Below, piece by piece: positions 16,820 through 63,776 of a stretch of DNA of 64,000 bases. The stretch's first letter is position 1. Every line of letters starts with the position of its first letter. This DNA is from Candidatus Kaiserbacteria bacterium. Lineage in GTDB: Bacteria; Patescibacteriota; Minisyncoccia; Phycocordibacterales; UBA2100. Under the pieces are notes generated by a model. It was not told the origin of the DNA, made no database searches, and saw only the letters and a list, made by a program, of their open reading frames with translations. Made by a program: the position numbers and the translations under genes. The stretch spans positions 462,199 through 526,198 of the forward strand of contig CP070993.1 in NCBI GenBank assembly GCA_017134395.1, in the 5' to 3' direction.

Positions 16820-16851
16820 AAATAGCTTGTTACATGGTATCCGCAAAGACA

Positions 16852-19490: not shown

Positions 19491-19501
19491 ATACCTGTAT
19501 A

Positions 19502-20350: not shown

Positions 20351-20442
20351 AGGTGCAAAATCGGCCTTAGTATTTTCAATGATACGGGACGTACACCATT
20401 GTCGCAATTCGCCTTGTGCACACCAAGACACCGTTACTTTCC

Positions 20443-42307: not shown

Positions 42308-43108
42308 TTATCTAATCTCCCCACAACCTCCTAGTGGATTGCTCGGGTCACTTTTCACAGCGGCAGAACAATCATTTTGACTACTAAAACAATTATTACT
42401 GCTGTTAGGTAATGTATAGCACCAAGAACCAGAAGGAAGATTCCTTCTGTCAGTAGGAGGATAAATTGTCCCATTTGCATGTGCATTAGAAATATAATTA
42501 GGATTCAGTGCGCAGCAATCTCTCGTATCTGTACCAAAAGGAGATACTCCTGGACAACGAGATTCTCGCACCGCTTCCCACCCCTCACCCTTTACACTGC
42601 TACATGTCTCTCCGATAGACATTCGTGTCCAAGTCTCATCTGTATATTCTGGAAGCACGTCCGGTGCAACCAATGTTGCTCCTGTAGTGTTTTGTTCTGA
42701 AGGAGCACCTGACTCAGAAGGTTTTGCTACAGTTATATTTACAGGACTTAACACAAAATCGAGATTTAAAATATCAGGATTTATTTCATTAAAGAATAAC
42801 CACACGCTGAGTAACATAAGTAAACCCAGAACAGCCTGCTGCATTCGTTCTCTACTTGAGCCCTTGCCTGAAGCAGCTTCTGTTGTCATGTATTGTAGGC
42901 CTGACACGGCAATTATAAGAACGGCAAGAACCGCACCTATCGTAAGAGCAATTTGGAAGAGGTTGTTGAAAAAGTTACCTAAATTTTCAGTATCCAAATT
43001 TCCAAGACCGTTTGCAAGTGGTGTATAGGCAGCATCAACAAAGGAGGGTATAACCAAAAGTGAAAAGAGAACACCAACACTTAAAAGAAATAGTTTATTT
43101 TTAACCAT
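42308..43108 (-). CDS. TrbC/VirB2-like pilin-fold membrane protein with a Cys-rich C-terminal extension.
   Basis: Signal peptide, hydrophobic helix, short polar loop, second hydrophobic helix (pilin-like layout), then about 150 aa with 12 Cys. Confidence 0.4.
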   Translation of the reverse strand: MVKNKLFLLSVGVLFSLLVIPSFVDAAYTPLANGLGNLDTENLGNFFNNLFQIALTIGAVLAVLIIAVSGLQYMTTEAASGKGSSRERMQQAVLGLLMLLSVWLFFNEINPDILNLDFVLSPVNITVAKPSESGAPSEQNTTGATLVAPDVLPEYTDETWTRMSIGETCSSVKGEGWEAVRESRCPGVSPFGTDTRDCCALNPNYISNAHANGTIYPPTDRRNLPSGSWCYTLPNSSNNCFSSQNDCSAAVKSDPSNPLGGCGEIR

Positions 43109-43126
43109 ATGTATCTGCTTAGTATA

Positions 43127-44407
43127 CTAAATACCTTCTTCGTCTCCACCTTCTTCTTCGACTATCTCTTCTGTTGTTTTAGGTAGTGTAACTGACCATA
43201 ATGTTTGGTCAGTTTTATTAATAAAGAATACTACATTTCCGTTAGTGCTCACTGAGAGATTGATAATATCGAGAGACACTCCGTGTTCAGCTTGTGGCGA
43301 AACGATATGAGTAATTCTTTTTGTATCGGTACGTACTTCAAACAATGAATCAGAAAAATGTACCCGCCCCTGGTACCATACATCCGGATACTCCCCTTTA
43401 GGGAATGCGTTGGGAAGCGCACAGAATACAGAAATGCCATTCGGATGCCACACGCATTTCTCAGCAAGACTCGCAATATCTAAAGTTGTTATTTTGCCCG
43501 ACTTTGTATTCTTAATTGTAAGTACAGGGATACCTCTGTCTCCATTGTGACTATACAAAACGTTTTCACCGTCAGGACTGAGTGTAGCAGCAAGTCCTTT
43601 TAGCTGCTGGAGAACTAACGTTTTTACGCCTGTAGATGTATTTATTACGTAAGCTGAACCCGGTAAGTCTGATGAGGCTTTTTGTGATACCAGTAATACA
43701 TCATTTTGCCAATCCATATTCCATCCTTGTAGAATTGATGCTGAAACCTCTTCTTCTCCAGAACCGTTCGGGTTTGCAAGGTAGAGTATACTTCCCTGTA
43801 AGGTTTGTTGTAAGAAGCTGATTTGGTTTCCGCTAGAATTGGTGGTTATCTCAGAGATCTGTGTCGGAAGAGATGAGCTCTGCGTTTCAGTACCTTTTAA
43901 ATCACTATAGATTGTAACTAACGAACCGTCCTCGCCAATATACCTACGTAAAACACCATCCCCGTCATTGGTAAACAAGGCTTCTTGTACCTGTGGAACG
44001 GTTGTTTGGTCAAGACGTGTCGTCGTGCCATCAGGGAGATCTTTTTCAAACACATGACCAGTAGCTTTGTCTACGAATCGTATTGCATTAGAACGCTTTT
44101 TTATAAAACCTGCTGTTGGAAGATTGTAAAGCTGACGTAATCGTGGTTTCGCGACAATTGATTCATCAGAGGTGCCATCCACATTCGTATTATTGTTTAT
44201 TACGTCCCCGAACGTTCCGCCAAACAAACCGCCTCCCCCACCACCCCTACTTGAGGTATTAAGTGCTGAATCAAAATAACCTAAATCCTCAGTCTCTTGC
44301 TGCAATCGTTGCTGTTGTTGTCCTATAAAAACAGCCCACGCTAAAAGCACAACTATAAGAATTATAATAAGGACTGATATACCGATGTAGAGTTGTTTCT
44401 TTTTCAT
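43127..44407 (-). CDS. Single-pass membrane protein with a probable beta-propeller (TolB/WD40-like) ectodomain.
   Basis: N-terminal TM; repeated PDG/HPNG-type blade-like motifs. Confidence 0.4.
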   Translation of the reverse strand: MKKKQLYIGISVLIIILIVVLLAWAVFIGQQQQRLQQETEDLGYFDSALNTSSRGGGGGGLFGGTFGDVINNNTNVDGTSDESIVAKPRLRQLYNLPTAGFIKKRSNAIRFVDKATGHVFEKDLPDGTTTRLDQTTVPQVQEALFTNDGDGVLRRYIGEDGSLVTIYSDLKGTETQSSSLPTQISEITTNSSGNQISFLQQTLQGSILYLANPNGSGEEEVSASILQGWNMDWQNDVLLVSQKASSDLPGSAYVINTSTGVKTLVLQQLKGLAATLSPDGENVLYSHNGDRGIPVLTIKNTKSGKITTLDIASLAEKCVWHPNGISVFCALPNAFPKGEYPDVWYQGRVHFSDSLFEVRTDTKRITHIVSPQAEHGVSLDIINLSVSTNGNVVFFINKTDQTLWSVTLPKTTEEIVEEEGGDEEGI

Positions 44408-44410
44408 ATA

Positions 44411-45442
44411 TTAAAATCCAAATAGCGAATTACGTGCACTTCCTTCGAATACTATATTAAAGGTACTTTTTGCGACTTGCAGAAGATGTGTGAGGTGATC
44501 AATTGTTACGTCTACAGAGGTAGCCGCATCCTCATCTCCAGATAGTTGAATGGTCAAAACAGAAGGTGCGTCTTGAACACCAAAAACTTTAGTACCGTTG
44601 ATGTTCCAGGAGTACAAAAGATTTTCGTCGTTCTCATTACGTGCGTCCATAAAGTAAGGAATTGCCTGCACTTCAATCTGTGAAGATTCTGCAAAAATAT
44701 GATTGCCATCTATAGCTGCATGATATTGAACGCCCGTTAGGGGGTTTTTTTCATACAGAATAACTTGAGGATCCTGTGTTTTTATACGTGTCGCAGATTG
44801 TGCACGCTGTATTCCATCAGGGGTTGCTACTTCAATGGCTAGAATATAGTCTCCAAAAAACTTAGGACCTTCTGTTAGTAAGGTGTTGGCACCAATGCCA
44901 GAGAGACTACCTAATACTGTCCCATTTTTACTCCATGTATAAATAAGTTCTGAGGCATTATATGTTTCCCCTTTTTCATTTCTAAATGTTGCCAATGCTT
45001 CTGCTCGTATAGAACTTCCTGACGAATACAATGCTCTACCGTTGTAAAATGGTGGAACATACGTATCTCCTTCCCAGAAAAGAGTGACTTCTGCTGGTGT
45101 TATTAATACAGATTTAGTAAAAACAGCCCCAGTAGCTGTTTTTACGAGTACGCTTACTTGTTGGGAAGAACCCACATTACCTGTTGTAAACGTAAAATCT
45201 ATCCCACCTGGTTTTTGTTGCTGCACTTCGTTGTCTAATAGCCACACAATAGTAGCTGTACGAACATTCTCGTTTGACGATGAGACGGTTGCAGTCACTT
45301 CTTGGTTCGATTGAGGTAATTCTGGCGATAAGCTAATTGAAATTTCTATTCCAGCTAAAGAGTCTATGGTTTGGGCGTAGGTAAAATTCTGAAAAGAAAG
45401 GAGCAAACTGAAAAGCAATCCTGTGTAAAGGAAAAAACGCAT
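44411..45442 (-). CDS. Secreted hypothetical protein.
   Basis: Signal peptide; no family recognised. Confidence 0.4.
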   Translation of the reverse strand: MRFFLYTGLLFSLLLSFQNFTYAQTIDSLAGIEISISLSPELPQSNQEVTATVSSSNENVRTATIVWLLDNEVQQQKPGGIDFTFTTGNVGSSQQVSVLVKTATGAVFTKSVLITPAEVTLFWEGDTYVPPFYNGRALYSSGSSIRAEALATFRNEKGETYNASELIYTWSKNGTVLGSLSGIGANTLLTEGPKFFGDYILAIEVATPDGIQRAQSATRIKTQDPQVILYEKNPLTGVQYHAAIDGNHIFAESSQIEVQAIPYFMDARNENDENLLYSWNINGTKVFGVQDAPSVLTIQLSGDEDAATSVDVTIDHLTHLLQVAKSTFNIVFEGSARNSLFGF

Positions 45443-45562
45443 ACGTACATTATATAGTGGTTTACGTAAATCAGCAGAAATATATCGTGATAAGTGTGGG
45501 TTTTCTGTGAATGCTATATTGTTGGCGATGATGTTTTTGTATAATCTTCCTCTTCCTTTTCT

Positions 45563-45895
45563 TTAATTTTTTTTAAGATCTTCCTTCTTAACTTGCTGAA
45601 TAATAACCCAAGTACCTACCGCCCAAGACGGTATGAAATTAATTAGTGGAAGCATTTCAGCTATTGTAATAGACATGTTTACTATGAAGCGATTTGGTTT
45701 ATCGGCGAAACCAACACCTAAAAGTCTAAACCAAATCCAGAAGATGATTCTGGCAAGAATTGTAAGAAAGCTCGCTAAAAAAGGTCCTACGATTGGAATA
45801 AAAGTTAACAATCCTTGCAAGAAATCTGTAAAAATGGCTGCCCCCATGAGTGCCCACGTGTGGAAACCGTTAATTCTTCTTATATTCTCATCCAT
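45563..45895 (-). CDS. Small polytopic membrane protein (110 aa).
   Basis: Three hydrophobic segments; directly downstream of the VirB4-like ATPase. Confidence 0.4.
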   Translation of the reverse strand: MDENIRRINGFHTWALMGAAIFTDFLQGLLTFIPIVGPFLASFLTILARIIFWIWFRLLGVGFADKPNRFIVNMSITIAEMLPLINFIPSWAVGTWVIIQQVKKEDLKKN

Positions 45896-45903
45896 AGAGT
45901 GTT

Positions 45904-47763
45904 TTATTTCAATTCTTGTATGTCAGCTGGTTGTGGCGATGTAGGAGTTGCGGGTGTTTCGGATAGTTCTTGCTTTGCTTTTTTAATAGCAAGTATTTGC
46001 GATGGATCGGATGTGATAATTTGATCTTCCGTGTAGCTCGCGATAACTTTTATAGCAACGTGTTTTAGTCCAGCAAAAAAGATACCCTCCCCTACATCTG
46101 ATTCAAGTAATAAGTATTTCTCTTCATCTGAAAGTTTGAATGTTTCTTGAATAAGATCGATTGATGTTGGTGACTGACGAAGCAAAATCTGAATAGACGA
46201 GTTAGTGATCATAGCTTTTCCATACGTGCTGCTTAAAAAGTCAGCGACATCTTGTGTAATTGTTGCAAGTCCAAGGTAATATTTACGCCCACGTTTTGCG
46301 ATTCCAAACAAGAAAGACGCTGTATCTTCTGATTTCATCATCCACCACGCTTCATCGATAATAAGAAGCCGCTTTCGAAGCTCCTTTCGTACCATATTCC
46401 AGATATAATGCGTCACTAGATACATTGCAACTGGCTTGAGTTCGTCTTCCATGTCTCGAACGCTAAACACAACAAAGCGTTTGTTCATGTCGATGTTCGT
46501 GGGGCGGTTTATGAATCCAGCCCAAGTACCACGAGTATACTTTGAAAGGCGTTGCACAAGAGACTCAGAACCCTCTAATCCAGAGAGTACTAATTCGAAG
46601 TCTGAAAGTAGTGGTGGTTCTAAATTAGCAAAATCAGAGTTCGGTGTAATGTCTTTCAGTGCATACGTTTCAGTAATTGCCCTATCTATGATTGCATCTT
46701 CTTCGGGTGTAAGGCCACCAAACATAATACGAAAGAGGCCCACCAATGTAATGATGTTGTTTCGAAGAATATCAGCCGGACTCTCATCTTCGCGAGGTGT
46801 GGGAAGATCAAATGGATTTATATGGTGTTGTGAAGAAAGTGATATGTTGAAATGGCGGCCACCGGTAGTTTCTGCTAAGTATTCGTATTCTCGCTCAGGG
46901 TCAATGACGATAACGTCAGCATCAAACATGAGTGAGCGAACAATCTCTAATTTTGTCATATACGATTTACCGGCACCTGATTTTGCAAATACAACAGAGT
47001 TGTAGTTTTCTAATGAGAAACGGTCAAAGAGCACAAGGCTGGAGTTGTGGCGGTTGATACCGTAAAGAATTCCCCTATCGCTCGTGAGGTCGAAAGAAAC
47101 AAATGGAAAGATGCTTGAAAGTGGAGATGAGTTAAGGTTCGAATGAACCGAAAGAGCATCTTCTGCTATTGGTAACACACTTTTAAATCCTGGTTCTTGC
47201 TGGAACAGTGCGGGTTTTAGATAGACAAGGCGGGATTCAAGAATCGATCGTATTTCTGATTCAGTTTTATCTATCTCGTCTCGCGTGTCTCCATAGATAG
47301 TTATATACAAACCAATTTTAAACATCTTCTCTTGTGCTTGCTGTAGTTGGTCTCTGAGATATTCGAGGTCAGAGTACGCGGTGTCGAGCACAGGGTCTCT
47401 TACGAGTCCTTTTTGTTGCCTAATAGAGATTTGACTTTCAACTTCTGCTACCTTCTTTTGAAACTTACGAAGTACAGCGGTTGTCTCCATAGGATGCACG
47501 AAAATAGATACATCAAATACCTTATCGAGGTTGATAATTGGAGAAAACCAACCAGTAGAGAGGAATCGTGGATACGAAATAACAAAAAAAGTACGCGCTA
47601 CTTTTTCCCCTAGGTTAAGTTCACGAGGGGTTATTTGTAGTGCTGAGGGTGCTATAACATCTTGGAGCTCAAGAACACCATGTTTATAGATTTCCTCTGG
47701 AAGGATAGGAACTATATCCTGTCCTTTTTTATTCTGTTTACCTAAAAAATCAAAAAAAGCCAT
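45904..47763 (-). CDS. VirB4/TraC/TrbE-family type IV secretion ATPase (central and ATPase domains).
   Basis: Walker A FAKSGAGKSYM, Walker B LLIIDEAWWM, C-terminal ATITQDVADF motif; the N-terminal part is encoded by the upstream ORF in another frame. Confidence 0.8.
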   Translation of the reverse strand: MAFFDFLGKQNKKGQDIVPILPEEIYKHGVLELQDVIAPSALQITPRELNLGEKVARTFFVISYPRFLSTGWFSPIINLDKVFDVSIFVHPMETTAVLRKFQKKVAEVESQISIRQQKGLVRDPVLDTAYSDLEYLRDQLQQAQEKMFKIGLYITIYGDTRDEIDKTESEIRSILESRLVYLKPALFQQEPGFKSVLPIAEDALSVHSNLNSSPLSSIFPFVSFDLTSDRGILYGINRHNSSLVLFDRFSLENYNSVVFAKSGAGKSYMTKLEIVRSLMFDADVIVIDPEREYEYLAETTGGRHFNISLSSQHHINPFDLPTPREDESPADILRNNIITLVGLFRIMFGGLTPEEDAIIDRAITETYALKDITPNSDFANLEPPLLSDFELVLSGLEGSESLVQRLSKYTRGTWAGFINRPTNIDMNKRFVVFSVRDMEDELKPVAMYLVTHYIWNMVRKELRKRLLIIDEAWWMMKSEDTASFLFGIAKRGRKYYLGLATITQDVADFLSSTYGKAMITNSSIQILLRQSPTSIDLIQETFKLSDEEKYLLLESDVGEGIFFAGLKHVAIKVIASYTEDQIITSDPSQILAIKKAKQELSETPATPTSPQPADIQELK

Positions 47764-47822
47764 AAAAACCTATCTGTATTATACCTGTTCAAACCAAACC
47801 AGACACACAACACTGGGGGCAC

Positions 47823-48488
47823 TTAGTTGAGTGCTTTTATCATTTGTTTTGGTTGGTCTCGCTCTCCTGGGTTAAATATTTTATAGAGGAGTTCTATTAT
47901 CTCCTCAGTATCAAGCTGCACAGAACGTACTCCGGTGCGCACTAGACCCTGTTGTACTATTGCCATCCGTTGGTCTAACTGAGAAACATTTTCTTGAAAT
48001 TCATTCTTTTTCACGGTGGTTTTACTTTCAGTTTTTTGAGATTTTGACCACGGGAGTGAACCCAGCATACCTTTGTTTATTGAAATCGTGGATGGGGAGT
48101 ATGGAACAACAACAAAAAATTGCTTAGTCATAATGTCAGCTCCTTCTACAAAACTCTTGATGAACTCCATATACTCACGTATTTGAATACGCATAAGATC
48201 GTCCATAGTACGTTTATACTCCACCTCAAGTGTTTCTATGTATGGGCGTATATCGAGTTCTCTTGATTGAATATAAATTTGGATCGAGAAATCTAGCGAG
48301 TTAAAGAAGTTCTGGAACTGCATTATAAAGGCACTTTGTTCATCCTCACTTTTAAGGGCGAAGTTTAATGAGGAAGCCATAAGTACACCTCTTAGGCCAC
48401 CGTTATTCAAAATAATTACACCATCTCGCACTTCTTTTACTGGTACGAAATCTTGAGATGATTGGGCTGATTTATTTGCTTGTGGCAT
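47823..48488 (-). CDS. N-terminal domain of the VirB4-like ATPase encoded as a separate ORF (split gene or frameshift).
   Basis: VPVKEVRDGVIILNNGGLRGVL...LKSEDEQSAFIMQFQNFFNSLDFSIQIYIQS matches the conserved start of Gram-positive-type VirB4 proteins; a 59-nt gap and a frame change separate it from 45904..47763. Confidence 0.55.
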   Translation of the reverse strand: MPQANKSAQSSQDFVPVKEVRDGVIILNNGGLRGVLMASSLNFALKSEDEQSAFIMQFQNFFNSLDFSIQIYIQSRELDIRPYIETLEVEYKRTMDDLMRIQIREYMEFIKSFVEGADIMTKQFFVVVPYSPSTISINKGMLGSLPWSKSQKTESKTTVKKNEFQENVSQLDQRMAIVQQGLVRTGVRSVQLDTEEIIELLYKIFNPGERDQPKQMIKALN

Positions 48489-48490
48489 AA

Positions 48491-48946
48491 CTATGATATT
48501 TCTTCTTGCTCTTCTTTTTCTCGATCCAGACGAATACGCTCGTTTATATCAAGACTCCACGCAAGACTCTTAAGTTTGTTTTCCGAAACTGATGGAATAT
48601 CTTGTTGAGACTGCGGTAACGACGTCTCGGTCTGGGTACGCTTTTTGGTGTTTTTGTAGTTAGAATTCCAGAGATAGAGTTTCTTATGTATGAAGTACAT
48701 AAAAGCAGCCTCAAGCGTGATAATGAGCGGTTTTTTATTTACTTTTACAAATGCAAGTGCCGCTGCAAAACCTACAATAGCGAGAGCAAGTGGTATTGCA
48801 ATAAGCGAAGGTAGATAACGCCACAATAAGAACCCTACTCCGACTCCACCAGCAACATATATAAATTGCTTAAGCGTAAGCGGACCGAAGATTTTATCTT
48901 CTACATCAGTAAATTGCGGTACTTGAAATTGCATAACTGATTCCAT
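48491..48946 (-). CDS. VirB3-like small membrane protein.
   Basis: 151 aa with two TM helices and a DKIFGPLTLKQF motif; immediately upstream of VirB4 (canonical VirB3-VirB4 order). Confidence 0.45.
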   Translation of the reverse strand: MESVMQFQVPQFTDVEDKIFGPLTLKQFIYVAGGVGVGFLLWRYLPSLIAIPLALAIVGFAAALAFVKVNKKPLIITLEAAFMYFIHKKLYLWNSNYKNTKKRTQTETSLPQSQQDIPSVSENKLKSLAWSLDINERIRLDREKEEQEEIS

Positions 48947-49108
48947 TAACGAGCAGGGTGTAGAGTAATACGTAGGCTTGCTCGAATGTGCTAAGTGTTG
49001 TTCTTGGCGTAGACAATCAGCTTACCGTGTCACTCATGACATGCTCTTACTCGTAAGTATCGCACATTACATTTAGTATGCCCATGAAAAAATGGGGACG
49101 AAATACTG

Positions 49109-49582
49109 TTACGCAATCGATTCTCGATATGGGTCCTCTTGTACATCCGATCGTTCGGTGCTTTTTTGTCCAACCATATACGCAGTAGTATCTGAAGGCA
49201 CCGCTTTTTCTGTCTTTTTTGAAGAATATACCGTTTCTCTTTGTAGTGATTCGCTGTCCAAATGTGTTTGCATTTTTTCACGGATTGGCTTAAACACCTG
49301 TATCGCTATGTCGTCGACAAGTTTTTGAGCGAGGTCTTCCTCGATGCCAACTTCTTCTGCGATATTTTTTGCCATATTTTCAGGATCCTCTAAGCCTAAA
49401 AGAGTCAGCATAATTTCATTCTCTAAAAGAGTCCATTGGTCGAGGTGGAGTTTATAGTTCGACGCTAATTCACGAAGTTTTTTTTCTACACGTGTATCAG
49501 AAACGGCTTGTTGTACTGCTTCGGGCAGTTCCGAAAACCTTTTTTCAATAAGTGCTTCGATATTTTCTTCTTGTAAGTCCAT
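49109..49582 (-). CDS. Hypothetical acidic cytoplasmic protein.
   Basis: 157-aa ORF between the VirB6-like and VirB3-like genes. Confidence 0.4.
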   Translation of the reverse strand: MDLQEENIEALIEKRFSELPEAVQQAVSDTRVEKKLRELASNYKLHLDQWTLLENEIMLTLLGLEDPENMAKNIAEEVGIEEDLAQKLVDDIAIQVFKPIREKMQTHLDSESLQRETVYSSKKTEKAVPSDTTAYMVGQKSTERSDVQEDPYRESIA

Positions 49583-49587
49583 AGTAG

Positions 49588-51654
49588 TTATTTATCTTTT
49601 GTTTCGCTTTTATTGTCTTTTAATCCTGAAATGGAATCTTCTGTAGACTCTGTTTTCTTTAATATTTTTTCTAGCATCTTCTCTTCATCTGTCTTACCTG
49701 CTAATTTATTTGCTCTTGCATCAATTCTTTCTTGTGTCTTTTCTCTCATTCTTTTAAGTAATCCTTTTTTCTTTTCTTCAGCAGGCTTTGTTCCGTCTTC
49801 ACTTGCAAGACTTGGAATCCTTGGCTGATTTACTGTTGTTTGATCAGGACTTGTGTTTCCGACATTATTTACAGAAATATTGTTCAATGGATTTCTTCTC
49901 GCTTGTTCCTCATTAATTCTTTGGGCTGTTTTTCCAATATCTTGTCCTGCACCTTCTATCTCGTTTTGTTTTCCACGACTATCTGCAGTGTCTGTAGCTT
50001 TGGAAGGCGAATTATCATTTGTTACAGTGTTATCGTTTGACGGCGTGCTTTGGATGTTAGAAACAGGAGCAGTACCCTTTGCTTCTTCTGCATTGTCGTT
50101 TGTTGATTGTGGTGGTTGAACTGTTGTTTGGTCAGGACCCTGTGTTTGTGGCGGTGTCTGCTTAGACGTATCTTCAACGGTCGTCTTACCTGCTTTTTTA
50201 GCATCATTTTGATATTTTGCCTCGGCATCAATCATTTTGTCGTAATTTCCTACACCAGTACCAAGATTAACCCCTGCACTTTTAAGGCTATTGGCAAGAC
50301 TCTTTGAGTCACGAATGTCGAAAGAGGTGTCTGCAGCTTTTTTAGAAGCATTTAAGGCTAGTCTCGAAGGGATATTTCTAAGTGGGTTTCTGCTCCCAGC
50401 GTTTCTTCGTAGGAATTCATTTTCAGACAATGCAGTTCCTGCCCTACCAACAGTACCTCTTCCAGCACGGCCAGCGAGCCCAAATGCCCCACCAGCTAAA
50501 CCGAGAGGGAGAGCAAGAGAACCTGAAAGAAGTTTCCTAAATCCACCTTTGCTCATATTTCCTGCAAATTTAGCTCCGCCAATAGAAAGATTGTTTGCTA
50601 CTTGAGTTGATGCGTAAAGAAGTCCAATAACAACCATCATATTGAAAATGTATATCCATGAATTACTATTTTCTCCTACAAGCCCTGAAAAATTATTCCC
50701 ACTAGAGCCTGAGTTGATACCTCCTATAATTTGAACGGTTCCCCAGAGCATTATCATAAATACGGGCGCAAACAATGCATTTTGAATAAGATGTGACCAC
50801 CATTTGTCCCACCATTTATTTCCTCCAGGTATCATATACGCAGCAAACGCCGCAGAAGAAGTGAGCATAAGGACAAGAAACATCACTATACGAGTCACCA
50901 TCAAAATAAGCCCATATAGCATGACGATAGTGAGTGCTAAAAAGAAAATCATAGTAATGACCGTGTATAAAATCGCGTTACCAACCCCACTCTCCTCACC
51001 AGCTTGTACTTGATTTAATGCCTCTCGTGCAGACCCATATGTCCAGTCTACTACTCCTGTCTTTTGCATAAATATCGTTGTGATACCAGCAGTATTTCCA
51101 TCTGTGTCACTTACTGATATCGCTTTTCTAAATTGTATTGCAGTGATGTTTGAAACATCAATGATTGCTTTGGTGAAAAAGAGACTAAAGTTTATAAGTA
51201 CTGCAACAACAAGAATTCGCACACCGAATTTTTTTAATCCGTATGCGGGGATATCAAGAATGACAGCAAATGCAACAAATACAAACATCGCAATCATAAT
51301 GATATTTGCGACGTCACGAAAACCAGCCCAAGCAGCATTGACACCAGGCTCAAATATTTTAAACGTTTCAGAAAAATCGACGATTGTATAAAAGAGTACT
51401 AGATCGAACCCTGTCCCAACCATTGCGAGAAGCCCACCAGTTAGCGTTATAAATACCGCTAATATATAAGAAATAGTACCCTCAAAGAATGGTTCTATAT
51501 CTAAATCAAAGAAACCAGCATGAGAGATAAGTAGATTAATATCTAATTTTTCCACATTGAATTGTAATGGGAGTACAATCAGTATAAAAGCTGCTATTAA
51601 ACTGTATGTAATAGGCAGAGAAGAGTTGGTTACTTTTTTAAAAAAGGAAAACAT
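49588..51654 (-). CDS. VirB6/TrbL-like polytopic membrane protein with a long polar C-terminal tail.
   Basis: At least 7 TM helices, Trp-rich periplasmic loop, about 300-aa low-complexity tail; start set to the internal ATG at 51654. Confidence 0.5.
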   Translation of the reverse strand: MFSFFKKVTNSSLPITYSLIAAFILIVLPLQFNVEKLDINLLISHAGFFDLDIEPFFEGTISYILAVFITLTGGLLAMVGTGFDLVLFYTIVDFSETFKIFEPGVNAAWAGFRDVANIIMIAMFVFVAFAVILDIPAYGLKKFGVRILVVAVLINFSLFFTKAIIDVSNITAIQFRKAISVSDTDGNTAGITTIFMQKTGVVDWTYGSAREALNQVQAGEESGVGNAILYTVITMIFFLALTIVMLYGLILMVTRIVMFLVLMLTSSAAFAAYMIPGGNKWWDKWWSHLIQNALFAPVFMIMLWGTVQIIGGINSGSSGNNFSGLVGENSNSWIYIFNMMVVIGLLYASTQVANNLSIGGAKFAGNMSKGGFRKLLSGSLALPLGLAGGAFGLAGRAGRGTVGRAGTALSENEFLRRNAGSRNPLRNIPSRLALNASKKAADTSFDIRDSKSLANSLKSAGVNLGTGVGNYDKMIDAEAKYQNDAKKAGKTTVEDTSKQTPPQTQGPDQTTVQPPQSTNDNAEEAKGTAPVSNIQSTPSNDNTVTNDNSPSKATDTADSRGKQNEIEGAGQDIGKTAQRINEEQARRNPLNNISVNNVGNTSPDQTTVNQPRIPSLASEDGTKPAEEKKKGLLKRMREKTQERIDARANKLAGKTDEEKMLEKILKKTESTEDSISGLKDNKSETKDK

Positions 51655-51656
51655 AC

Positions 51657-53711
51657 TTAGATTTTGTGTTGAGTCCAATTATCTGGTTTACACCATCCTT
51701 CTTCCCAATTAGTTCGAGTTTCTTCGAGGAGTTGCTGCATCGCTGTTTCGATTTCGTCAGCCTGTGTAGTTGCTTGCCGTAGTTGGGCTTCAGTATGTAG
51801 TACTCGAGATGCAATGAGCTCATCAAGTTTTTCTAGGATGAAACGTTGTCCACTGGCTGACGATGTTTTTTCAAGATCGTTACGTATTTTTGCAAGTACT
51901 TCGAGCGCTTTGAGTGAACGTGCAACATTTTCGTTAATGAGGTCAAGAACTGGTTGTATACTTTGATCGATTATTCGTCGGGATTCTTGCGCACTTACGT
52001 TAAGAGTTGCAGATTTTGTTGTACTCCGTGCAGTTGCGGTAATAGTTACTGCTGGTTTTTCAATCGGCACAGTGAGAACAACCCCTGTAGGCGTTGTTGT
52101 TTTCTTCACGAGTGAGAGTATGGGTGCAAACGTACCACTGCCACTTGCGAGAGTTTCTATTGTGGTCACAGTTATAGTTCCGTCTGGCAATGTCGCAAGA
52201 TCAATGGCATTCGTTGCCCAGTTACCATCGGTAGTGACCGTTGGTTGCACTGGACCTACATTGTTTGTTCCGTCTGTTGCAGTGACCTGAATAATAGAAC
52301 TTCCAGTGGAGGCACGTCCTTTCACGATGATTGTTGAGGCAGATGGCGTTGATATATCAACCGCATCTACTGCTAGAGTTTGGGTTGTTTGAACAGGGGT
52401 TGTACACGTATTAGTAGTATTTAATCCACATACTTGACCTGTAACCTCTTCTTTCAAATCTATTGTGGCTTGCTTTGTTATTTCAATCCAACACGTGTTT
52501 TCCCACGACTCAAGTTGTCGGCGGGTGTTAGAAAGTGTATTGGCAGCAGCTTGGCGTGCTTGAGCGTATTCTTGTTCTATACGAATGGTGTTATTTACGA
52601 TAGATGCACCAGCACCAGTCATGTTACTGCGTGTACGAGCAGCGGAGTCTTGTGCAAGACGATCAACATAGGGAGCTTCACCCGAAAATGATTTTGAAAG
52701 TCCAGAAAAACCTTCAACATCGGATAGAAGTTCAACTCCGATATGTGACATAAGGGCTGAAACGATTTCGTCTATCTCATCAGCGTTTTCAGATTGACGT
52801 AGTCCCGTACCGATAGTCTGGCGTAAATGATCGGCAATCATAAAACCTGGGGTCACTACACGTTTTAAGTTAGTAGTATCACCACCTCCTAAGTCTATGG
52901 TTTTGTCTGTTTCAACTGTACGGAAACCACTTCCCCAATCGAGCTGCGTTTGTTCGCGAGTTTGTTCATCGGCGATTGACTCAGTGAGCTGGTTTTCTGC
53001 GCTGTAGTATGCAAAAAGAGGATTGCAGGAAGGGTTTGTTGTGAGTTTATAGAAGGATTCCCAGCCACCGCCGCTATTGAAATCTCCAGACGAGAACGAA
53101 TTTAACTGACTCGTTGTTAAATCGCATGCCAACGAATTTTGAGGAGAGCGTGTTTCTCGCGAATAGTTTCTCGCAAGAGCAACCCTCACATCCCTTCTAA
53201 ACGGTTCTGCAAGTGTTTCAGTTTGGGCTCCTGTGATAACTCGTTCTGCAACTGGGTCAGAAATATTCTCGAGCATATGCAATGGAAGGTTTGTTATGTA
53301 TGCAGGATTTCCATCGAAGCCCGTGTTCGCCCAACTGACCACTCGGCGAATGATATCTGAGATAAGCGTTTCTCGCATCGAATTTAATATTCCATCAAGT
53401 AAACATTCTTTGTATGTAAGAAGACGTTCTTGGTCGTGTACTGCACCATCGAACACCGGAACATGAGAACCACCGGGTCCTTGCATACCAACGGCACCAT
53501 ACGCTGCCCCAGTACAGCCATAGATACCATCGCGCGAGAACCCAGTCGCGACAGATGTGGCAGCACTTGTACTTGTTGCATTGTTAAGTTGGTCGAGAAC
53601 ATTGTTAAGTAAATCAATACTTGAAGATGTTTGGGCATGCGAAACAGAAACGCCAAGGGTGCTCACAAATAAAACAGAAAGTATGAAGTATTTTGCTACT
53701 TTGTATTTCAT
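51657..53711 (-). CDS. Large secreted hypothetical protein (684 aa).
   Basis: Signal peptide; Thr-rich repeats; part of the T4SS-like cluster. Confidence 0.45.
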   Translation of the reverse strand: MKYKVAKYFILSVLFVSTLGVSVSHAQTSSSIDLLNNVLDQLNNATSTSAATSVATGFSRDGIYGCTGAAYGAVGMQGPGGSHVPVFDGAVHDQERLLTYKECLLDGILNSMRETLISDIIRRVVSWANTGFDGNPAYITNLPLHMLENISDPVAERVITGAQTETLAEPFRRDVRVALARNYSRETRSPQNSLACDLTTSQLNSFSSGDFNSGGGWESFYKLTTNPSCNPLFAYYSAENQLTESIADEQTREQTQLDWGSGFRTVETDKTIDLGGGDTTNLKRVVTPGFMIADHLRQTIGTGLRQSENADEIDEIVSALMSHIGVELLSDVEGFSGLSKSFSGEAPYVDRLAQDSAARTRSNMTGAGASIVNNTIRIEQEYAQARQAAANTLSNTRRQLESWENTCWIEITKQATIDLKEEVTGQVCGLNTTNTCTTPVQTTQTLAVDAVDISTPSASTIIVKGRASTGSSIIQVTATDGTNNVGPVQPTVTTDGNWATNAIDLATLPDGTITVTTIETLASGSGTFAPILSLVKKTTTPTGVVLTVPIEKPAVTITATARSTTKSATLNVSAQESRRIIDQSIQPVLDLINENVARSLKALEVLAKIRNDLEKTSSASGQRFILEKLDELIASRVLHTEAQLRQATTQADEIETAMQQLLEETRTNWEEGWCKPDNWTQHKI

Positions 53712-54652
53712 AAGGCTTCTTCTTTCAACGTAAAGTAAATATCAATTTGGCTATATGCGAGTTTAATGGCATCCTCACCTTCTAGAAAATCTCGCGTTGC
53801 TACAAAGGTGAGTAGTGGATCTTCTGGTGTTGTTGTCATTGTGTTTAAGATGGACGCAAAGGTGGCAAAGCTGTTTATTAAATCAAGGTGTGCTTGCGCA
53901 GCGTCTTCAGGGGCTGTAATAGTAAGTAATACTTGGGCAATCTCATCGTAAATAGTGGCCGCAGCGGTAAGTTTGTTAAACTCTTCTGCATTACCTGACT
54001 CAATAGCGCGCCCGTATGTGATAAGTTCGTATTCTCCAATTTGAGTAACCGGAGTTATGGCTTCTTGAAAATCACTTTTGTATTGCAATGTTCTGCTTTG
54101 TGAAGTGTCGGACGTGATGCCAATATCTTCGAGCGTATATTGGGCTGTGTGGCGTATAGAAAATTGTGAGTTAGCAGCTTGCGCAACGATGAAGTCAAAT
54201 GAATCACTATCGAACGACCCCTGCTGTTTCGACTGAATGTACGCTCCAAAAATTTCTCGAGCAAGTTGATCTGTTCTGGTTGTACTTGCATTACTGTGTG
54301 TGTTTTTTGCGTTTTCCTCAAACGTTTTTCGTGCTGCCGCAAGCTCATCACCATCGGAAATTCCGTCGTTGTTGGTGTCAGGATTGTTAGGATCGGTACC
54401 TAAAAGAATTTCTTCCCAATCCTTCACTCCGTCGTTATCACTGTCCGCTGTGTACTCTGTAGACTCTAGAATATTTTCTGTCGCTGTTTGCAAAGCCCCA
54501 TTATCAGACTGTGGTTTTTGAGAGAACAATTTCCATCCTGCGAAACCTACTAGCACAACGCCGAATAGCGTTGCAGCAATAATCTTGCCGCTTATGTGCG
54601 AATTAGTAAACACACTAATAGTATAGCAAGGTAGGGCGTATCGAGTGCTCAA
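53708..54652 (-). CDS. Membrane-anchored protein with thrombospondin type-3-like Ca-binding repeats.
   Basis: TM at N-terminus; DSDNDGVKDWEE...DPNNPDTNNDGISDGDE. Confidence 0.45.
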   Translation of the reverse strand: MSTRYALPCYTISVFTNSHISGKIIAATLFGVVLVGFAGWKLFSQKPQSDNGALQTATENILESTEYTADSDNDGVKDWEEILLGTDPNNPDTNNDGISDGDELAAARKTFEENAKNTHSNASTTRTDQLAREIFGAYIQSKQQGSFDSDSFDFIVAQAANSQFSIRHTAQYTLEDIGITSDTSQSRTLQYKSDFQEAITPVTQIGEYELITYGRAIESGNAEEFNKLTAAATIYDEIAQVLLTITAPEDAAQAHLDLINSFATFASILNTMTTTPEDPLLTFVATRDFLEGEDAIKLAYSQIDIYFTLKEEAL

Positions 54653-54683
54653 AAAACCCTACAAATTGGGGACACGTTAGGAT

Positions 54684-55607
54684 TTATAGGGTAAACGTAA
54701 AAATACGTCCAGGTTCATGATTTTTAAATACAACTCCGTATGATTTGAATAGAGTTACGAGTGTTATGTGCCCTTTGGCGACTTTTTCTGACGCGATATT
54801 ATAGATTAATATTCTTTCCATAAGGCTCTCATCGTCAGTTGCGAGAGTGAGGTCCCATAATAGCTCCCCTACCAATGTATATGAGGTAACTAGGTTCGTT
54901 TGCGCGTTCTGTAGTTGTTCTGGAACCTCTAGATCTGCAATGTTAGCTGCAAGCTGTAAGTATCCATCGGTGAGTCGTTTGAGCTGCTCAGTATTTTCCC
55001 GATCTTCAATAAAAATATTCAAAAGTTTTGTCTGATCTCCTTGGGAGAGGTTAAACGCATTAAGTAATGTCGCAAGTTCGTTACCGTATACTCGGAATTC
55101 CTCCTGTATCTTTGAGGGAGCGTCTTCTGAAACGATAGGGACTGTTTTGGAATAGTTACCGCTCCAAATAGGCTCATCAGAAAATGTATCTGTGTCGCTT
55201 TGTTGAGCTAGCGTATCGAGCAATGAAGACCCAATAAGCGTATTAAAAAGCGATGAGACTTCTTCGCTTTCAGTTGGTGTTGTACTTGAAGCATCAAGCG
55301 TTTCGAGGGTCGTACGGAAGTCCTGTGAACCTGGGCGTTCTTCCCATGTTTGAATAATTTTTTGTATTGCCACCTTTTGTTCCTCCAGAGATTCTGGATC
55401 GATGGTTACTGGTTCTATCTGTGGTTTCTGCTGCAAACTTGTAAATAACGTATCAGTACTTGAGAAAGAAAAGTACGTAGGAGTGGTAGGAGTAATATTT
55501 TTTTCGCTCGTGAGTGGTAAAAACCATATCGAAGTACCCAAAACACCTGCGACTATAAAAACAAGAACAGAAAGGATTATAATGAGGCGCGCGCGATCCA
55601 TGCGCAC
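54684..55607 (-). CDS. Membrane-anchored hypothetical protein.
   Basis: N-terminal TM; no family recognised. Confidence 0.4.
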   Translation of the reverse strand: MRMDRARLIIILSVLVFIVAGVLGTSIWFLPLTSEKNITPTTPTYFSFSSTDTLFTSLQQKPQIEPVTIDPESLEEQKVAIQKIIQTWEERPGSQDFRTTLETLDASSTTPTESEEVSSLFNTLIGSSLLDTLAQQSDTDTFSDEPIWSGNYSKTVPIVSEDAPSKIQEEFRVYGNELATLLNAFNLSQGDQTKLLNIFIEDRENTEQLKRLTDGYLQLAANIADLEVPEQLQNAQTNLVTSYTLVGELLWDLTLATDDESLMERILIYNIASEKVAKGHITLVTLFKSYGVVFKNHEPGRIFTFTL

Positions 55608-55644: not shown

Positions 55645-56013
55645 GTGCGCATGAGCAGAACACGTAACTATTTTCCTAAAAAAAGTGTCGTTTTGGTAGT
55701 TGGCATCGCACTATTCGTGGCGACATCACTTTCTTTTCTTGCAACGCCACAACGCACGCAGGCGTTTGAGTGGGGTGGGCAATTCCAAACAGTAATCCCC
55801 TGTTTCAATGCCGTTATTTGGACGTTAACGAGTGGTCCGCGTGGAGGGACATTTATTTGGACGCCGAGCACGCGCACATACGACAATGGTCCACCGTCTA
55901 GTTCTGGGCAATACGGTCTCGGCCTTGCTGGTCCACCGTATTTTTGTATAGTCTTCCCGTTTCCCCTCGTGGTATTTCCCGGGGTTATTATGACAATGGT
56001 AGGTACGAGCTGA
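55645..56013 (+). CDS. Small secreted or membrane hypothetical protein.
   Basis: Signal-like N-terminus; the only plus-strand ORF in this gap; uncertain. Confidence 0.3.
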   Translation: MRMSRTRNYFPKKSVVLVVGIALFVATSLSFLATPQRTQAFEWGGQFQTVIPCFNAVIWTLTSGPRGGTFIWTPSTRTYDNGPPSSSGQYGLGLAGPPYFCIVFPFPLVVFPGVIMTMVGTS

Positions 56014-58955: not shown

Positions 58956-59193
58956 AAATGGGCACTATACCATGCCACACTCTGGCTACGAAGAGTCCTT
59001 GACTCTGAGTCTATCCACAGTAGTATAAATGAGCTATTGCGGACTTATTCGTAGTGGTTACAGTGTATATAGGGGGTTTGCGACTGATGCGGAACCCTAT
59101 TCCGTACAAAACGGTACGGGCACGTTAATTAGGCTTATTTTATCTACAGATCAGGATTCTGATCCTAGTTTGCGTAGTTACGTAAAGGTTCAG

Positions 59194-60255
59194 ATGACAA
59201 AAATATCAACCACAATGTGGCGTAACGCCGTGTTTCTTGTGGTCGTGATATCGATGGTTTTCCCAACCGGAGTACACGCGGGCTTCTTCAGTAATGTCTT
59301 CGCAGCGTTTTCTCCAACGCTTGCATACACTGCACACGCTACTTACAATTCACAAACTATTCCTCTCCCCCGTGCTGCTCAGAACATTGACCCGAATCCA
59401 TCAAAAGGTGGAGGAGATATAACAATCGTAAATGACTCAGCGCTTTTACCAGCATCTGGTCCAGCAGGTTCTCTTGCAGACGTTGACGAAGGCAGTTCTT
59501 ACAAAAATAACGGACAAATTAGTATTTACATTGTTCGCCCAGGAGACACTCTTGGTGACATTGCACAGATGTTTGACGTATCCATCAACACGATTCGATG
59601 GGGTAACGATATTGCACGTAGTGAAGCGATACAACCTGGGCAAGAGTTGGTAATTTTACCAGTGACTGGAATTAAATACACAGTAAAGAACGGAGGAACT
59701 TTGAAAGATATTATTGATAAGTACGGTGGCGACATAGAGGAAGCTGTTGAATATAATGGTTTCTCAGCAACGGAACATCTTGTTGCAGGTACGGAAGTGA
59801 TTATCCCAGATGGTGAATTAGCAGCGCCAAAAGCGGCTGCAAAAGTGGCACAAAGCCGCTATACAACAACAACCTCACGCCCACGCGGGACATCAAACGT
59901 ACCTAGCTACAGTGGTTTCTATATCCGACCAATCAATGGAGGAACTAAAACACAGGGTATACATGGATATAACGCAGTTGACCTTGCAGCACCTGCAGGA
60001 ACTCCAATTCTTGCTTCAGCAGCAGGAAAAGTAATTATCTCCAAGGGAAGTGGATGGAATGGAGGATATGGAAAATATATTGTTATCGAACATGCTAATG
60101 GTACACAGACACTGTACTCACACAATTCACGAAACCAAGTGTTCTCAGGACAGAGTGTCGTACAAGGACAAGTTATCGGGTATGTAGGTTCGACAGGACG
60201 TTCAACTGGATCACATGTTCACTTTGAGATACGTGGTGCGAAGAACCCATTCTAG
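59194..60255 (+). CDS. Secreted cell-wall hydrolase: two LysM domains plus a peptidase M23 domain.
   Basis: Signal/TM; LysM motifs (YIVRPGDTLGDIAQ; YTVKNGGTLKDIID); M23 HxxxD and HVHFE motifs; start moved to the ATG at 59194. Confidence 0.8.
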   Translation: MTKISTTMWRNAVFLVVVISMVFPTGVHAGFFSNVFAAFSPTLAYTAHATYNSQTIPLPRAAQNIDPNPSKGGGDITIVNDSALLPASGPAGSLADVDEGSSYKNNGQISIYIVRPGDTLGDIAQMFDVSINTIRWGNDIARSEAIQPGQELVILPVTGIKYTVKNGGTLKDIIDKYGGDIEEAVEYNGFSATEHLVAGTEVIIPDGELAAPKAAAKVAQSRYTTTTSRPRGTSNVPSYSGFYIRPINGGTKTQGIHGYNAVDLAAPAGTPILASAAGKVIISKGSGWNGGYGKYIVIEHANGTQTLYSHNSRNQVFSGQSVVQGQVIGYVGSTGRSTGSHVHFEIRGAKNPF

Positions 60256-62246: not shown

Positions 62247-63776
62247 TTATCTCTCTTGTTTGGGTCGATATTGAAGTGCTTCAAGAATGTGAGTTTCGTT
62301 AATATTGGCGGACTTTTCAATGTCGGCAATGGTGCGAGCTAGTTTTATACAGCGATGGTACGCACGCGGTGAGAGATTCATTTTAGTTGCAGCGTTATTA
62401 AGAATATCAGCACACTCTTTTGAAAGTGGCGCATGGTGACTTAGTCCTGCTGGAGTCATGCCGCTGTTAAGACGTTTTGGTTTCTTGAAGCGTTTTAGTT
62501 GTATTGTTCTGGCGTCTGCAACTTTTTTGCGCGTAATATCGGATTCATTATTCTTTTTCGGTTTCTCTAATAGTTTACTGTGCTCTATTGCACCAACTTC
62601 AATCCACATATCTATACGGTCCATTATAGGTCCTGATAGCTTTTGCTGATACCGCTGGAGTGCAGCAGGTGCACACGTACATTTAGTGCTCCCGTAATAG
62701 CCACACGGACAAGGGTTAAGCGCTGCAATGAGAATAAAATCAGACGGAAACACAGCAGAACCTTTTGCACGCGTTATAGAAACCACTTTGTCTTCTAATG
62801 GTTGGCGCAGTGCATTAATGACCCGTTTATCGAATTCTGGGAACTCATCAAGGAAAAGGACGCCACGGTGAGCGAGCGTTATCTCCCCTGGGCGCGGTAT
62901 AGTGCCACCACCGACAAGCGAAACATAGCTTGCGGTGTGGTGAGGACTTCGTAATGGTGGGCGTTGTACAATAGTTTCTGTAAGAGTCCCAGCGATTGAG
63001 TGAATACTTGTTACTTCTAATGCTATGTCGTGAGGTAAATTAGGTAATAAGGAACAGAGCGCTTTTGCGAGCATTGTTTTACCAGTCCCAGGAGGACCGA
63101 AAAGAGCGATGTTATGACCACCTGCTGCTGCGATAGTAAGGCCACGCTTTGCATGGTCTTGGCCTCGTATAGACTCGAGATGATTTTCAGGTGTATACGG
63201 TACTGTGTGTGGTGAGTTGCTTAAAGGAGTTATTTCTTCTGTGCCACGTAAGTGAGAAACAATTTGAGAAAGTGTGGCTGTAGGGAAAACAGTAATACCC
63301 TCGATAAGCGCTGCTTCAGCTGCATTCTCTTCTGGTACAAAGACTGCATTAAAGCCTTCGCTTCGTGCTTTTTGTACCAGAGGCAATACGCCAGTTGTTG
63401 CTTTGATTTTTCCATCCAATGAAAGCTCACCAAAGAAAAGAAGTTTCTCGATTGATGCCTCCAGTTCCCCGCTTGCCAGTAGGTAGGCGATGGCAATTGG
63501 CACATCAAATAAAGGACCTTCTTTCTTTAAATCAGCTGGCGCAAGAGACACTACAATCTTCATGTTGTTGTGTTTTGGCGCTTTGAAACTAGAACTTTTT
63601 TCAAAGTCAGCATTTTTTAGTGCTGCACTTACTCTGTCGCGAGATTCTTCGACAGCTTTGTCGGGTAGTCCAACTACCGAGAACGCATGGAGACCTTTTG
63701 AGAGGTCAATTTCTATAGTAACGATATGTGCAGAAAGGAGTGATGTTTGCGCACTAAAAACTTGAGCAAAGGACAT
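62247..63776 (-). CDS. comM: YifB/ComM-family Mg-chelatase-like AAA+ ATPase.
   Basis: N-terminal Lon-like domain, Walker A GPPGTGKTMLA, C-terminal ComM domain. Confidence 0.85.
   Translation of the reverse strand: MSFAQVFSAQTSLLSAHIVTIEIDLSKGLHAFSVVGLPDKAVEESRDRVSAALKNADFEKSSSFKAPKHNNMKIVVSLAPADLKKEGPLFDVPIAIAYLLASGELEASIEKLLFFGELSLDGKIKATTGVLPLVQKARSEGFNAVFVPEENAAEAALIEGITVFPTATLSQIVSHLRGTEEITPLSNSPHTVPYTPENHLESIRGQDHAKRGLTIAAAGGHNIALFGPPGTGKTMLAKALCSLLPNLPHDIALEVTSIHSIAGTLTETIVQRPPLRSPHHTASYVSLVGGGTIPRPGEITLAHRGVLFLDEFPEFDKRVINALRQPLEDKVVSITRAKGSAVFPSDFILIAALNPCPCGYYGSTKCTCAPAALQRYQQKLSGPIMDRIDMWIEVGAIEHSKLLEKPKKNNESDITRKKVADARTIQLKRFKKPKRLNSGMTPAGLSHHAPLSKECADILNNAATKMNLSPRAYHRCIKLARTIADIEKSANINETHILEALQYRPKQER

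Follow-up and report, generated by a model that had tools for sequence, protein, structure and literature searches.

In this study, a gene cluster resembling a type IV secretion system (T4SS) was analysed in a 64-kb window (64,000 nucleotides, positions 462,199 to 526,198 of contig CP070993.1, assembly GCA_017134395.1) from a Candidatus Kaiserbacteria bacterium. This window lies on the chromosome of a small genome (GC about 41%). Twelve co-directional open reading frames (ORFs), already listed in a first-pass annotation made from the sequence alone, occupy the minus strand at 42308–55607. They are designated g01 to g12 from 55607 down to 42308 (Table 1) and are tightly packed, with overlaps or gaps of 2–162 nt. 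The GC content of the cluster (0.385–0.444) is the same as that of the rest of the window, with no GC anomaly. Pfam scans, which took in essentially all other ORFs of the window, identified jag/khpB, yidC, rnpA, dnaA, and dnaN immediately downstream of the cluster, and ksgA, uvrD/pcrA, and a LysM-M23 peptidase gene upstream of it. Scans for promoters and terminators over the cluster yielded results at or below shuffle expectation. Rfam and tRNA scans gave no match inside or beside the cluster, the 3 tRNAs of the window all being far away.

The VirB4 ATPase is encoded by two ORFs in different frames, g07 and g08, separated by 59 nt, and both were placed in VirB4 models by NCBIfam, as the description of a split VirB4 in the first-pass annotation had implied. 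The stop codon of g07 (TAA) is at 47823–47825 and the ATG of g08 is at 47763. The g08 product matched NF045971 (conju_CD1110, VirB4-like CD1110) with an E value of 9e-109 and 364.7 bits against a cutoff of 325, over model positions 185–733 of 752, and Pfam PF19044 (P-loop_TraG) with an E value of 2e-26 and 93.2 bits against 25.8; in its translation the Walker A (SGAGKS) and Walker B (LLIIDEAW) motifs are intact. The g07 product aligned with positions 98–238 of 894 in VirB4_plasma (E = 2e-13), positions 2–118 of 752 in CD1110, and positions 3–177 of 792 in TIGR00929. Based on these positions, g07 and g08 encode consecutive, non-overlapping parts of one VirB4, the N-terminal 180 or so model positions being carried by the separate g07 protein and not by the polypeptide that contains the ATPase body.

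Database comparison showed that the g07 protein is 100% identical to the hypothetical protein JXR01_02675 (P0001) of a Candidatus Kaiserbacteria metagenome-assembled genome (MAG). The precomputed domain for P0001 and for all 120 of its listed homologues is PF26593 (TraC-like), which was absent from our own Pfam scan. Homologous clusters numbered 4,901, and the best 120 were all stand-alone proteins of 198–240 aa with 62–92% identity; the close homologues all came from Patescibacteria MAGs. When the search was made at 50% clustering, 149 of the best 150 representatives among 2,265 matches were stand-alone and 1 was a fusion of 797 aa (P0367). Residues 5–219 of this fusion are collinear with residues 8–217 of g07, and its residues 226–796 match residues 29–598 of g08 at 55% identity. 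This rare TrsD-VirB4 fusion is encoded at positions 544–2937 of CAZTUR010000004.1 (NCBI GCA_964615945.1, locus L082), in the same context of PrgI on one side and jag-yidC-rnpA-dnaA on the other. The downstream Ig (immunoglobulin)-like, propeller, and pilin genes are missing from that locus, where only a 163-aa gene lies between VirB4 and jag.

The related loci used for comparison were 81 in number, comprising 80 species representatives from a genome collection and 1 long metagenome contig. In all 81, the TrsD-like and VirB4 ORFs are separate, adjacent, and on the same strand. The frame of the TrsD-like ORF relative to that of VirB4 was 0, 1, and 2 in 21, 31, and 29 loci, respectively, and the gaps vary. 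In a close relative, L083, the spacer measures 58 nt and resembles that of the window in sequence; the gaps computed from longest-ORF starts in most other loci were approximately 1–25 nt, and the spacer sequence is not broadly conserved. Ratios of nonsynonymous to synonymous substitution (dN/dS), computed against L083 (dS approximately 1.1), were 0.039 for g07 and 0.010 for g08, and the VirB4 protein is 98% identical between the two genomes. Three options had been left for the split (a true two-gene architecture, a programmed frameshift, or a pseudogene), together with a suggestion to inspect synteny in related genomes. The retention of the split in every related locus, the purifying selection, and the stand-alone homologues decide for the first: the split VirB4 is a genuine and conserved two-gene architecture.

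The same arrangement is known from the staphylococcal plasmid pSK41, in which the gene order is trsC-trsD (227 aa)-trsE (672 aa). Residues 35–573 of g08 aligned with residues 36–617 of pSK41 TrsE (E = 7e-35, 24% identity). Since residue 36 of TrsE aligns with residue 35 of g08, the position of the break is common to g07/g08 and TrsD/TrsE, and the separation of g07 from g08 is a known variant within the VirB4 family. Comparison of the TrsD-like family with pSK41 TrsD by hhalign gave 173 collinear columns, a weak match (E = 9e-4, probability 23%), and g07 scored 22.4 bits (E = 9e-5) on the TrsD/TraD model NF041427, far below its curated cutoff of 200. By these scores g07 is therefore a remote homologue only of the TrsD/TraD family. 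The g08 protein has a median identity of 77% to the VirB4 of the 81 patescibacterial loci versus 24% to TrsE, and appears to belong inside the Patescibacteria VirB4 clade.

Three further proteins of the cluster resemble core components of a T4SS. The g06 product, which had been labelled VirB3-like, matched PF12666 (PrgI) above the gathering score (E = 6.4e-11, 43.1 bits vs 27), and its hydrophobic stretch at approximately residues 37–67 is consistent with two transmembrane (TM) helices. In 78 of the 81 loci, a g06 homologue immediately precedes the TrsD-like gene, and the dN/dS of g06 was 0.05.

The g04 product, with approximately 7 hydrophobic segments, had been described as VirB6/TrbL-like. 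This description rests on its homologues, 4 of 64 of which matched PF04610 (TrbL) with a best E value of 3.5e-5, and on a fold match to R388 TrwI/VirB6 that is specific but weak; g04 itself had no Pfam match. In an AlphaFold2 model, the TM core has predicted local distance difference test (pLDDT) values above 90 and the long C-terminal tail is partly of low confidence, suggesting that the tail is probably flexible. When the model was compared with PDB structures, the top 7 Foldseek matches were all R388 TrwI/VirB6, the best being 8rt9_F (E = 0.013, probability 1.0, TM-score on target 0.50). The match of g04 to pSK41 TrsL by hhalign was weak (E = 3e-3, 54 columns). Matches of the g04 family profile to PDB sequences consisted only of low-complexity or coiled-coil noise and were rejected.

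The last gene, g12, was one of two said to encode small membrane proteins with a pilin fold. For g12 this is supported by PF18895 (T4SS_pilin), matched with an E value of 5.3e-6 and a marginal 26.9 bits versus a gathering score of 26.6, and, among its homologues, by 42 of 46 matching PF18895 and 7 matching TrbC/VirB2; the protein is, at 266 aa with a long Cys-rich extension, larger than the term small implies. It was predicted to possess a signal peptide and two hydrophobic helices, and a weak match to the Mbov_0395 family was also found. Homologues, for example at L043:13815–15557 and L001:15251–17076, range from 106 to 580 aa in length (median approximately 295), and conservation is confined to the pilin domain. 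The Cys-rich extension is hypervariable and has no family match, and in single relatives the same ORF contains a Peptidase_S8 domain or M15/HH_signal domains (LAS-type cell-wall peptidase). For the second of the two genes, g09, a pilin fold was not supported.

Table 1. Genes and features of the T4SS-like cluster in the Candidatus Kaiserbacteria window
Feature	Position	Strand	Basis
g01, membrane-anchored protein, 307 aa	54684..55607	-	One N-terminal TM, residues 9-27; helical C-terminal domain
g02, membrane-anchored protein, 314 aa, TSP3 (Ca-binding) repeats and helical C-terminal domain	53708..54652	-	PF18884 TSP3_bac, E 1.1e-7
g03, secreted protein, 684 aa; helical N-domain of unknown type, long helical stalk, adhesin-type Ig-like repeats	51657..53711	-	
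g04, VirB6/TrbL-like polytopic membrane protein, 688 aa	49588..51654	-	TrbL matches of homologues, fold match
g05, acidic protein, 157 aa, between VirB6-like gene and PrgI	49109..49582	-	No TM, no signal peptide
g06, PrgI/VirB3-like membrane protein, 151 aa	48491..48946	-	PF12666
g07, TrsD-like protein, 221 aa, detached N-terminal module of VirB4	47823..48488	-	Hidden Markov model matches, collinearity with fused homologue
Spacer between the VirB4 pieces, 59 nt	47764..47822	-	Stops in all three frames
g08, VirB4 ATPase body, 619 aa	45904..47763	-	NF045971, PF19044, Walker motifs
g09, small membrane protein, 110 aa	45563..45895	-	Hydrophobic segments
g10, secreted protein, 343 aa, tandem Ig-like domains	44411..45442	-	Family profile vs 3shs
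g11, membrane-anchored TolB-like beta-propeller protein, 426 aa	43127..44407	-	TM residues 10-28
g12, VirB2-type T4SS pilin domain (residues 40-107) with Cys-rich variable extension of about 150 aa, 266 aa	42308..43108	-	PF18895

The order uvrD-ksgA-(small opposite-strand ORF)-g01..g05-PrgI-TrsD-VirB4-(g09)-g10-g11/g12-jag-yidC-(rnpA-rpmH)-dnaA-dnaN was found to recur across Paceibacteria, including Kaiser-, Adler-, Taylor-, Zambryski-, Nomura-, Vogel-, and Wolfebacteria. Conservation is graded, with median identities over the 81 loci of 77% for VirB4, 56% for the TrsD-like protein, 48% for PrgI, and 26–34% for the accessory proteins. Purifying selection on the core genes is strong throughout; dN/dS was highest in g12 (0.35, the top value among the clearly orthologous cluster genes) and g04 (0.24). 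Because the same flanking genes occur in every relative, the cluster is a chromosomal system with a fixed place beside the replication origin, inherited vertically, and not a mobile element such as an integrative conjugative element (ICE) or the remnant of one.

Searches for mobility and DNA-processing genes were negative. In the 64-kb window, Pfam detected no VirD4/TraG-type coupling protein and no relaxase, agreeing with what had been reported from the sequence, and no integrase, transposase, or other mobility-gene domain. In the gene tables of the related loci, neither a coupling protein nor a relaxase was listed within 10 kb of the cluster homologue. Using pSK41 TrsK and relaxases as queries, tblastn gave no match either in the window or in any of 83 related loci; with TrsA, TrsB, TrsC, TrsF, TrsG, TrsH, TrsJ, and TrsK of pSK41 there was likewise no match, TrsE alone being detectable by BLAST.

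These features correspond closely to those published for Patescibacteria. A survey of 3,035 patescibacterial genomes by Quiñonero-Coronel et al. in 2025 (PMC12102498) described a monophyletic Patescibacteria VirB4 clade nested in the MPF-FATA (mating pair formation, FATA type) group, with TrsD as the most abundant partner of virB4 (2,272 homologues, 1,664 of them adjoining virB4) and with PrgI/VirB3, VirB6, and PF18895 pilins near virB4. According to the same survey, most patescibacterial genomes are without a relaxase, the Paceibacteria cluster lies close to dnaA, dnaN, rnpA, ksgA, and rpmH, and the system was acquired once in ancient times and then inherited vertically. In Southlakia epibionticum, the homologous cluster (SEML1_0006–0019) was demonstrated by transposon sequencing (Tn-seq) to be essential for epibiotic growth, and neither a coupling protein nor a relaxase is recognizable in its T4SS (Wang et al. 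2023, PMC10633639). The locus of the window shares with these systems a VirB4 with an adjacent TrsD homologue, a PrgI/VirB3, a VirB6-like protein, a PF18895 VirB2-like pilin, the lack of a relaxase or type IV coupling protein (T4CP) at the locus, and a position next to dnaA/dnaN/rnpA/ksgA as for Paceibacteria. It differs in nothing essential: there is a single pilin-domain gene instead of an array, and no VirB1-like hydrolase is encoded inside. The accessory Ig-like, propeller, TSP3, and helical-stalk proteins, which were left unannotated in the survey (PMC12102498), appear to be lineage-specific.

Other VirB4-based systems are more distant. The Trs system of pSK41/pGO1 (Staphylococcus, MPF-FATA, pGO1 subclass) has the same trsC (VirB3)-trsD-trsE (VirB4) order and VirB4 split position, a small VirB2/CagC-like protein, and a TrbL-family protein; unlike the cluster described here, it resides on a mobile plasmid with a VirD4-like TrsK, relaxases, the CHAP hydrolase TrsG, topoisomerase III, and a single-stranded DNA-binding protein. 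The Prg/Pcf system of pCF10 (Enterococcus; PrgI, PrgJ, PrgH) is similar in its PrgI-family VirB3 and in a monoderm architecture without outer-membrane core proteins. Its PrgJ is a single full-length VirB4, and it possesses the adhesin PrgB, the hydrolase PrgK, the VirB8-like PrgL/PrgD, the T4CP PcfC, and a relaxase; it is not known to have a pilin. The T4SS of the Mycoplasma ICE (Mbov_0397 VirB4, Mbov_0395 pilin-like) provided the best N-terminal model match of g07, the VirB4_plasma match given above, but it has a single VirB4 of approximately 890 aa on a mobile ICE, and the scores of the window proteins are all far below the family cutoffs. Helicobacter pylori ComB, archaeal Ced, and Bordetella Ptl run without a relaxase, and some of them without a T4CP, showing that VirB4 machines are able to import DNA or export protein; they differ in component sets and envelope types, with no specific homology beyond VirB4.

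It is highly probable that the cluster is a standard chromosomal Patescibacteria T4SS, which originated from monoderm MPF-FATA conjugation machinery and became detached from the DNA-processing genes. A minimal non-conjugative apparatus of ultra-small, host-dependent bacteria had been proposed for it. The non-conjugative and host-dependent parts of that proposal are supported and match the published accounts (PMC10633639, PMC12102498), while the word minimal understates a conserved cluster of 12 genes.

In such a machine, the VirB6-like polytopic protein and PrgI/VirB3 would form a translocon in the cytoplasmic membrane, powered by the VirB4 ATPase. An intact VirB4 contacts VirB3 and the membrane through its N-terminal module, as known from the R388 structures. 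Here, this membrane- and VirB3-docking module would be the separate TrsD-like polypeptide of 221 aa, which may associate with the 619-aa ATPase body in the way of TrsD and TrsE of pSK41/pGO1. VirB4 could drive assembly of a filament or conduit at the surface from the VirB2-type pilin-domain protein, and the five surface proteins encoded in the cluster (Ig-like, TSP3, TolB-like propeller, and helical-stalk) may reach across the wall or touch the host cell. Such a system would serve an epibiotic, host-dependent lifestyle through macromolecule exchange with the host or attachment, and not plasmid-style conjugation. We infer a physical association of the TrsD-like protein, VirB4, and PrgI, as well as pilus formation and the nature and direction of the substrate. 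The function in Paceibacteria is suggested by analogy with the epibiont. A pilus serving as a conduit for uptake of host material has also been put forward as speculation in a 2025 review (PMC12857230) and a 2026 preprint (bioRxiv 10.64898/2026.06.21.733656).

Several observations weigh against this interpretation or parts of it. The VirB6 assignment of g04 is weak, as g04 itself had no Pfam match at E ≤ 0.1 and the E value of its best Foldseek match is poor. The family profile of the 221-aa protein had no PDB sequence match at E ≤ 1, and the TrsD-VirB4 link is suggested only by homology and gene adjacency. No VirB8-like or VirB1-like component was detected within the cluster. The data on essentiality come from another class, Saccharimonadia. 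In addition, VirD4-like genes are mostly far from virB4 and are present elsewhere in most patescibacterial genomes (PMC12102498), so that the lack of a coupling protein in the window does not mean that there is none in the genome, and one may be encoded elsewhere in this 688-kb genome.

Among other explanations, the one that survives best, though improbable, is that the machine is a DNA-import apparatus like Helicobacter ComB or archaeal Ced, supplying nucleotides or genes that the cell is unable to make. DNA import is known for VirB4-based systems that lack a relaxase or T4CP, the ATPase showed a weak partial match to CedB (NF041017, E = 5.8e-10), the window contains a ComM-like gene (62247–63776), and clusters of the ABY1 class co-localise with comF/recG/radA (PMC12102498). 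However, the CedB match is far below the cutoff (38 vs 700 bits), and no DNA-binding or nuclease component was seen in the cluster. Competence of S. epibionticum depends on comEC, and a comEC deletion is viable although the T4SS is essential (PMC12857230), indicating that the essential role is not transformation; DNA import is disfavoured because comEC-dependent competence is dispensable in this saccharibacterial model and the T4SS is not.

Still less credible, and to be given only a very small chance, is that the cluster is a decayed ICE from which the relaxase, coupling protein, and integrase have been lost. The absence of a relaxase and T4CP from the window would fit such decay, as would the fact that the nearest relatives of the VirB4, PrgI, and TrsD homologues are found in the conjugation systems of Firmicutes and Mollicutes. 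Decay is contradicted by the finding that about 80 species-level genomes from several candidate phyla-level groups have the cluster at an identical chromosomal position and in identical gene order, by the strong purifying selection on the core genes, by a composition equal to that of the host genome, by the absence of a tRNA or an integrase at the cluster borders, and by the single ancient acquisition with vertical inheritance reported in the literature (PMC12102498). Finally, a pseudogene, a frameshift introduced by assembly or sequencing, or a programmed ribosomal frameshift giving one full-length protein might be suggested by one VirB4 covered by two ORFs in different frames 59 nt apart and by the single fused homologue P0367, but the chance that any of these explains the split is practically nil. 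The spacer has stops in all three frames. Two ORFs in 81 of 81 independent genomes, in all three relative frames and with variable gaps, leave no fixed frameshift geometry and exclude a conserved programmed frameshift and an assembly artefact. The dN/dS values of both genes exclude a pseudogene, stand-alone proteins of approximately 220 aa dominate and number in the thousands, and the same split occurs in pSK41, a functional conjugative plasmid.

The observation of a standard Patescibacteria T4SS at this locus and its interpretation are correct but have been published already, point by point (PMC12102498, PMC10633639). Possible additions to the published surveys are the split point common to pSK41, the rare fused form in the same context, and the modularity of the pilin-domain proteins. 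The paralogy of g01 and g02 and an invariant motif in g05, both described below, are also slightly new, and none of these changes the classification. Taken together, the first group of observations allows a two-part reading that we offer tentatively and regard as rather unlikely to hold as a whole. Firstly, the shared TrsD|VirB4 break with occasional re-fusion would reflect one ancient fission, giving an obligate two-subunit VirB4 in which the N-terminal module docks the motor to PrgI/VirB3. Secondly, with the conserved pilin domain as the anchor of a modular protein, the pilus might display or deliver variable host-attacking heads rather than be a plain conduit.

The T4SS of Patescibacteria is nearly universal in a huge and mostly uncultured radiation and is essential for epibiotic growth in the one genetically tractable member. 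The window carries a typical locus of the Paceibacteria type and no new kind of system, and public records continue to list its genes as hypothetical. The present analysis is of practical use for correct annotation: the TrsD-like protein and VirB4 can be named as one functional ATPase, alongside PrgI, the VirB6-like protein, the pilin-domain protein, and five conserved surface proteins.

The accessory genes had been described as encoding six large secreted or anchored proteins, including a beta-propeller and TSP3 repeats. Five surface proteins (g01, g02, g03, g10, and g11) were recovered, the propeller being TolB-like and located in g11 and the TSP3 repeats in g02; the sixth, g05, is a protein of 157 aa without a signal peptide or TM segment and does not belong with them. 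Homologues of g01 were detectable by BLAST only in the closest relatives (10 loci), and its dN/dS was 0.14. The g02 protein has its TM segment at residues 20–38 and homologues in 36 related loci, and its family profile showed weak matches to lanmodulin and to the Ca-binding repeats of a biofilm-associated surface protein (7c7u). By hhalign, the g02 family matched g01 over 136 columns of the C-terminal helical domain (probability 90%, E = 1.5e-6). As this domain is homologous, g01 and g02 are paralogues, with the TSP3 repeats present in g02 only and not in g01.

Ig-like repeats were supported in both g03 and g10. The stop of g03 overlaps the start of the VirB6-like g04. In g10, the N-terminal hydrophobic leader is below the TM cutoff and ends in an A-Q cleavage-like site as read from the sequence; the g10 family profile matched the Ig-like domains of phage Hoc (3shs) with an E value of 4.5e-5, and homologues were present in 71 loci. 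The family profile of g11 matched TolB 7mx5 (E = 4.8e-4) and several other TolB chains, with a weak TIGR02800 match in addition and homologues in 64 loci.

The acidic g05 protein is probably cytoplasmic. Its C-terminal D-P-Y-R-E motif contains residues D150, Y152, and E154, which are invariant in 43 sequences; its dN/dS was 0.07 and homologues occurred in 49 related loci. No Pfam match was obtained with g05, and its family profile had no PDB match. The g09 protein is poorly conserved, being BLAST-detectable in 21 loci and only 24% identical to its counterpart in L083; it had no family match in Pfam or NCBIfam, and no PDB match was obtained with its family profile.

Several other genes of the window were noted. 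On the opposite strand between ksgA and g01, an ORF of 122 aa (55645–56013, plus strand) encodes a protein with an N-terminal signal/TM segment and a hydrophobic C-terminus, without a family match. It was BLAST-detectable in 13 related loci; L001, L083, and the closest relatives have it in this place as well, and it may be part of the secretion system. At 59029–60255 (plus strand), 3.4 kb upstream of the cluster, a protein with LysM and Peptidase_M23 domains is encoded; in 13 related loci it is again found upstream of uvrD. M23/LysM domains are mentioned for VirB1 homologues in the 2025 survey (PMC12102498), and this protein is a candidate functional stand-in for the missing VirB1-type wall hydrolase.

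Farther away, two minus-strand regions (14822–20431 and 27436–29208) encode 5 large secreted or membrane-anchored proteins of 676, 520, 338, 309, and 590 aa. These proteins are rich in Cys, Thr, Ser, and Asn, have no Pfam match, and are encoded near polA and a lone PilB/GspE-type ATPase gene (24153–25856); they may be further surface or host-interaction proteins. The minus-strand region 3544–8261 encodes a P-type ATPase, two DUF1573/Ig-like proteins, one of them fused to a rhodanese, a CsoR-type repressor, and a surface protein that is Asp-rich with TSP3-like repeats by sequence and has no Pfam match. Judging from these gene products, the region looks like a copper or metal homeostasis cluster.

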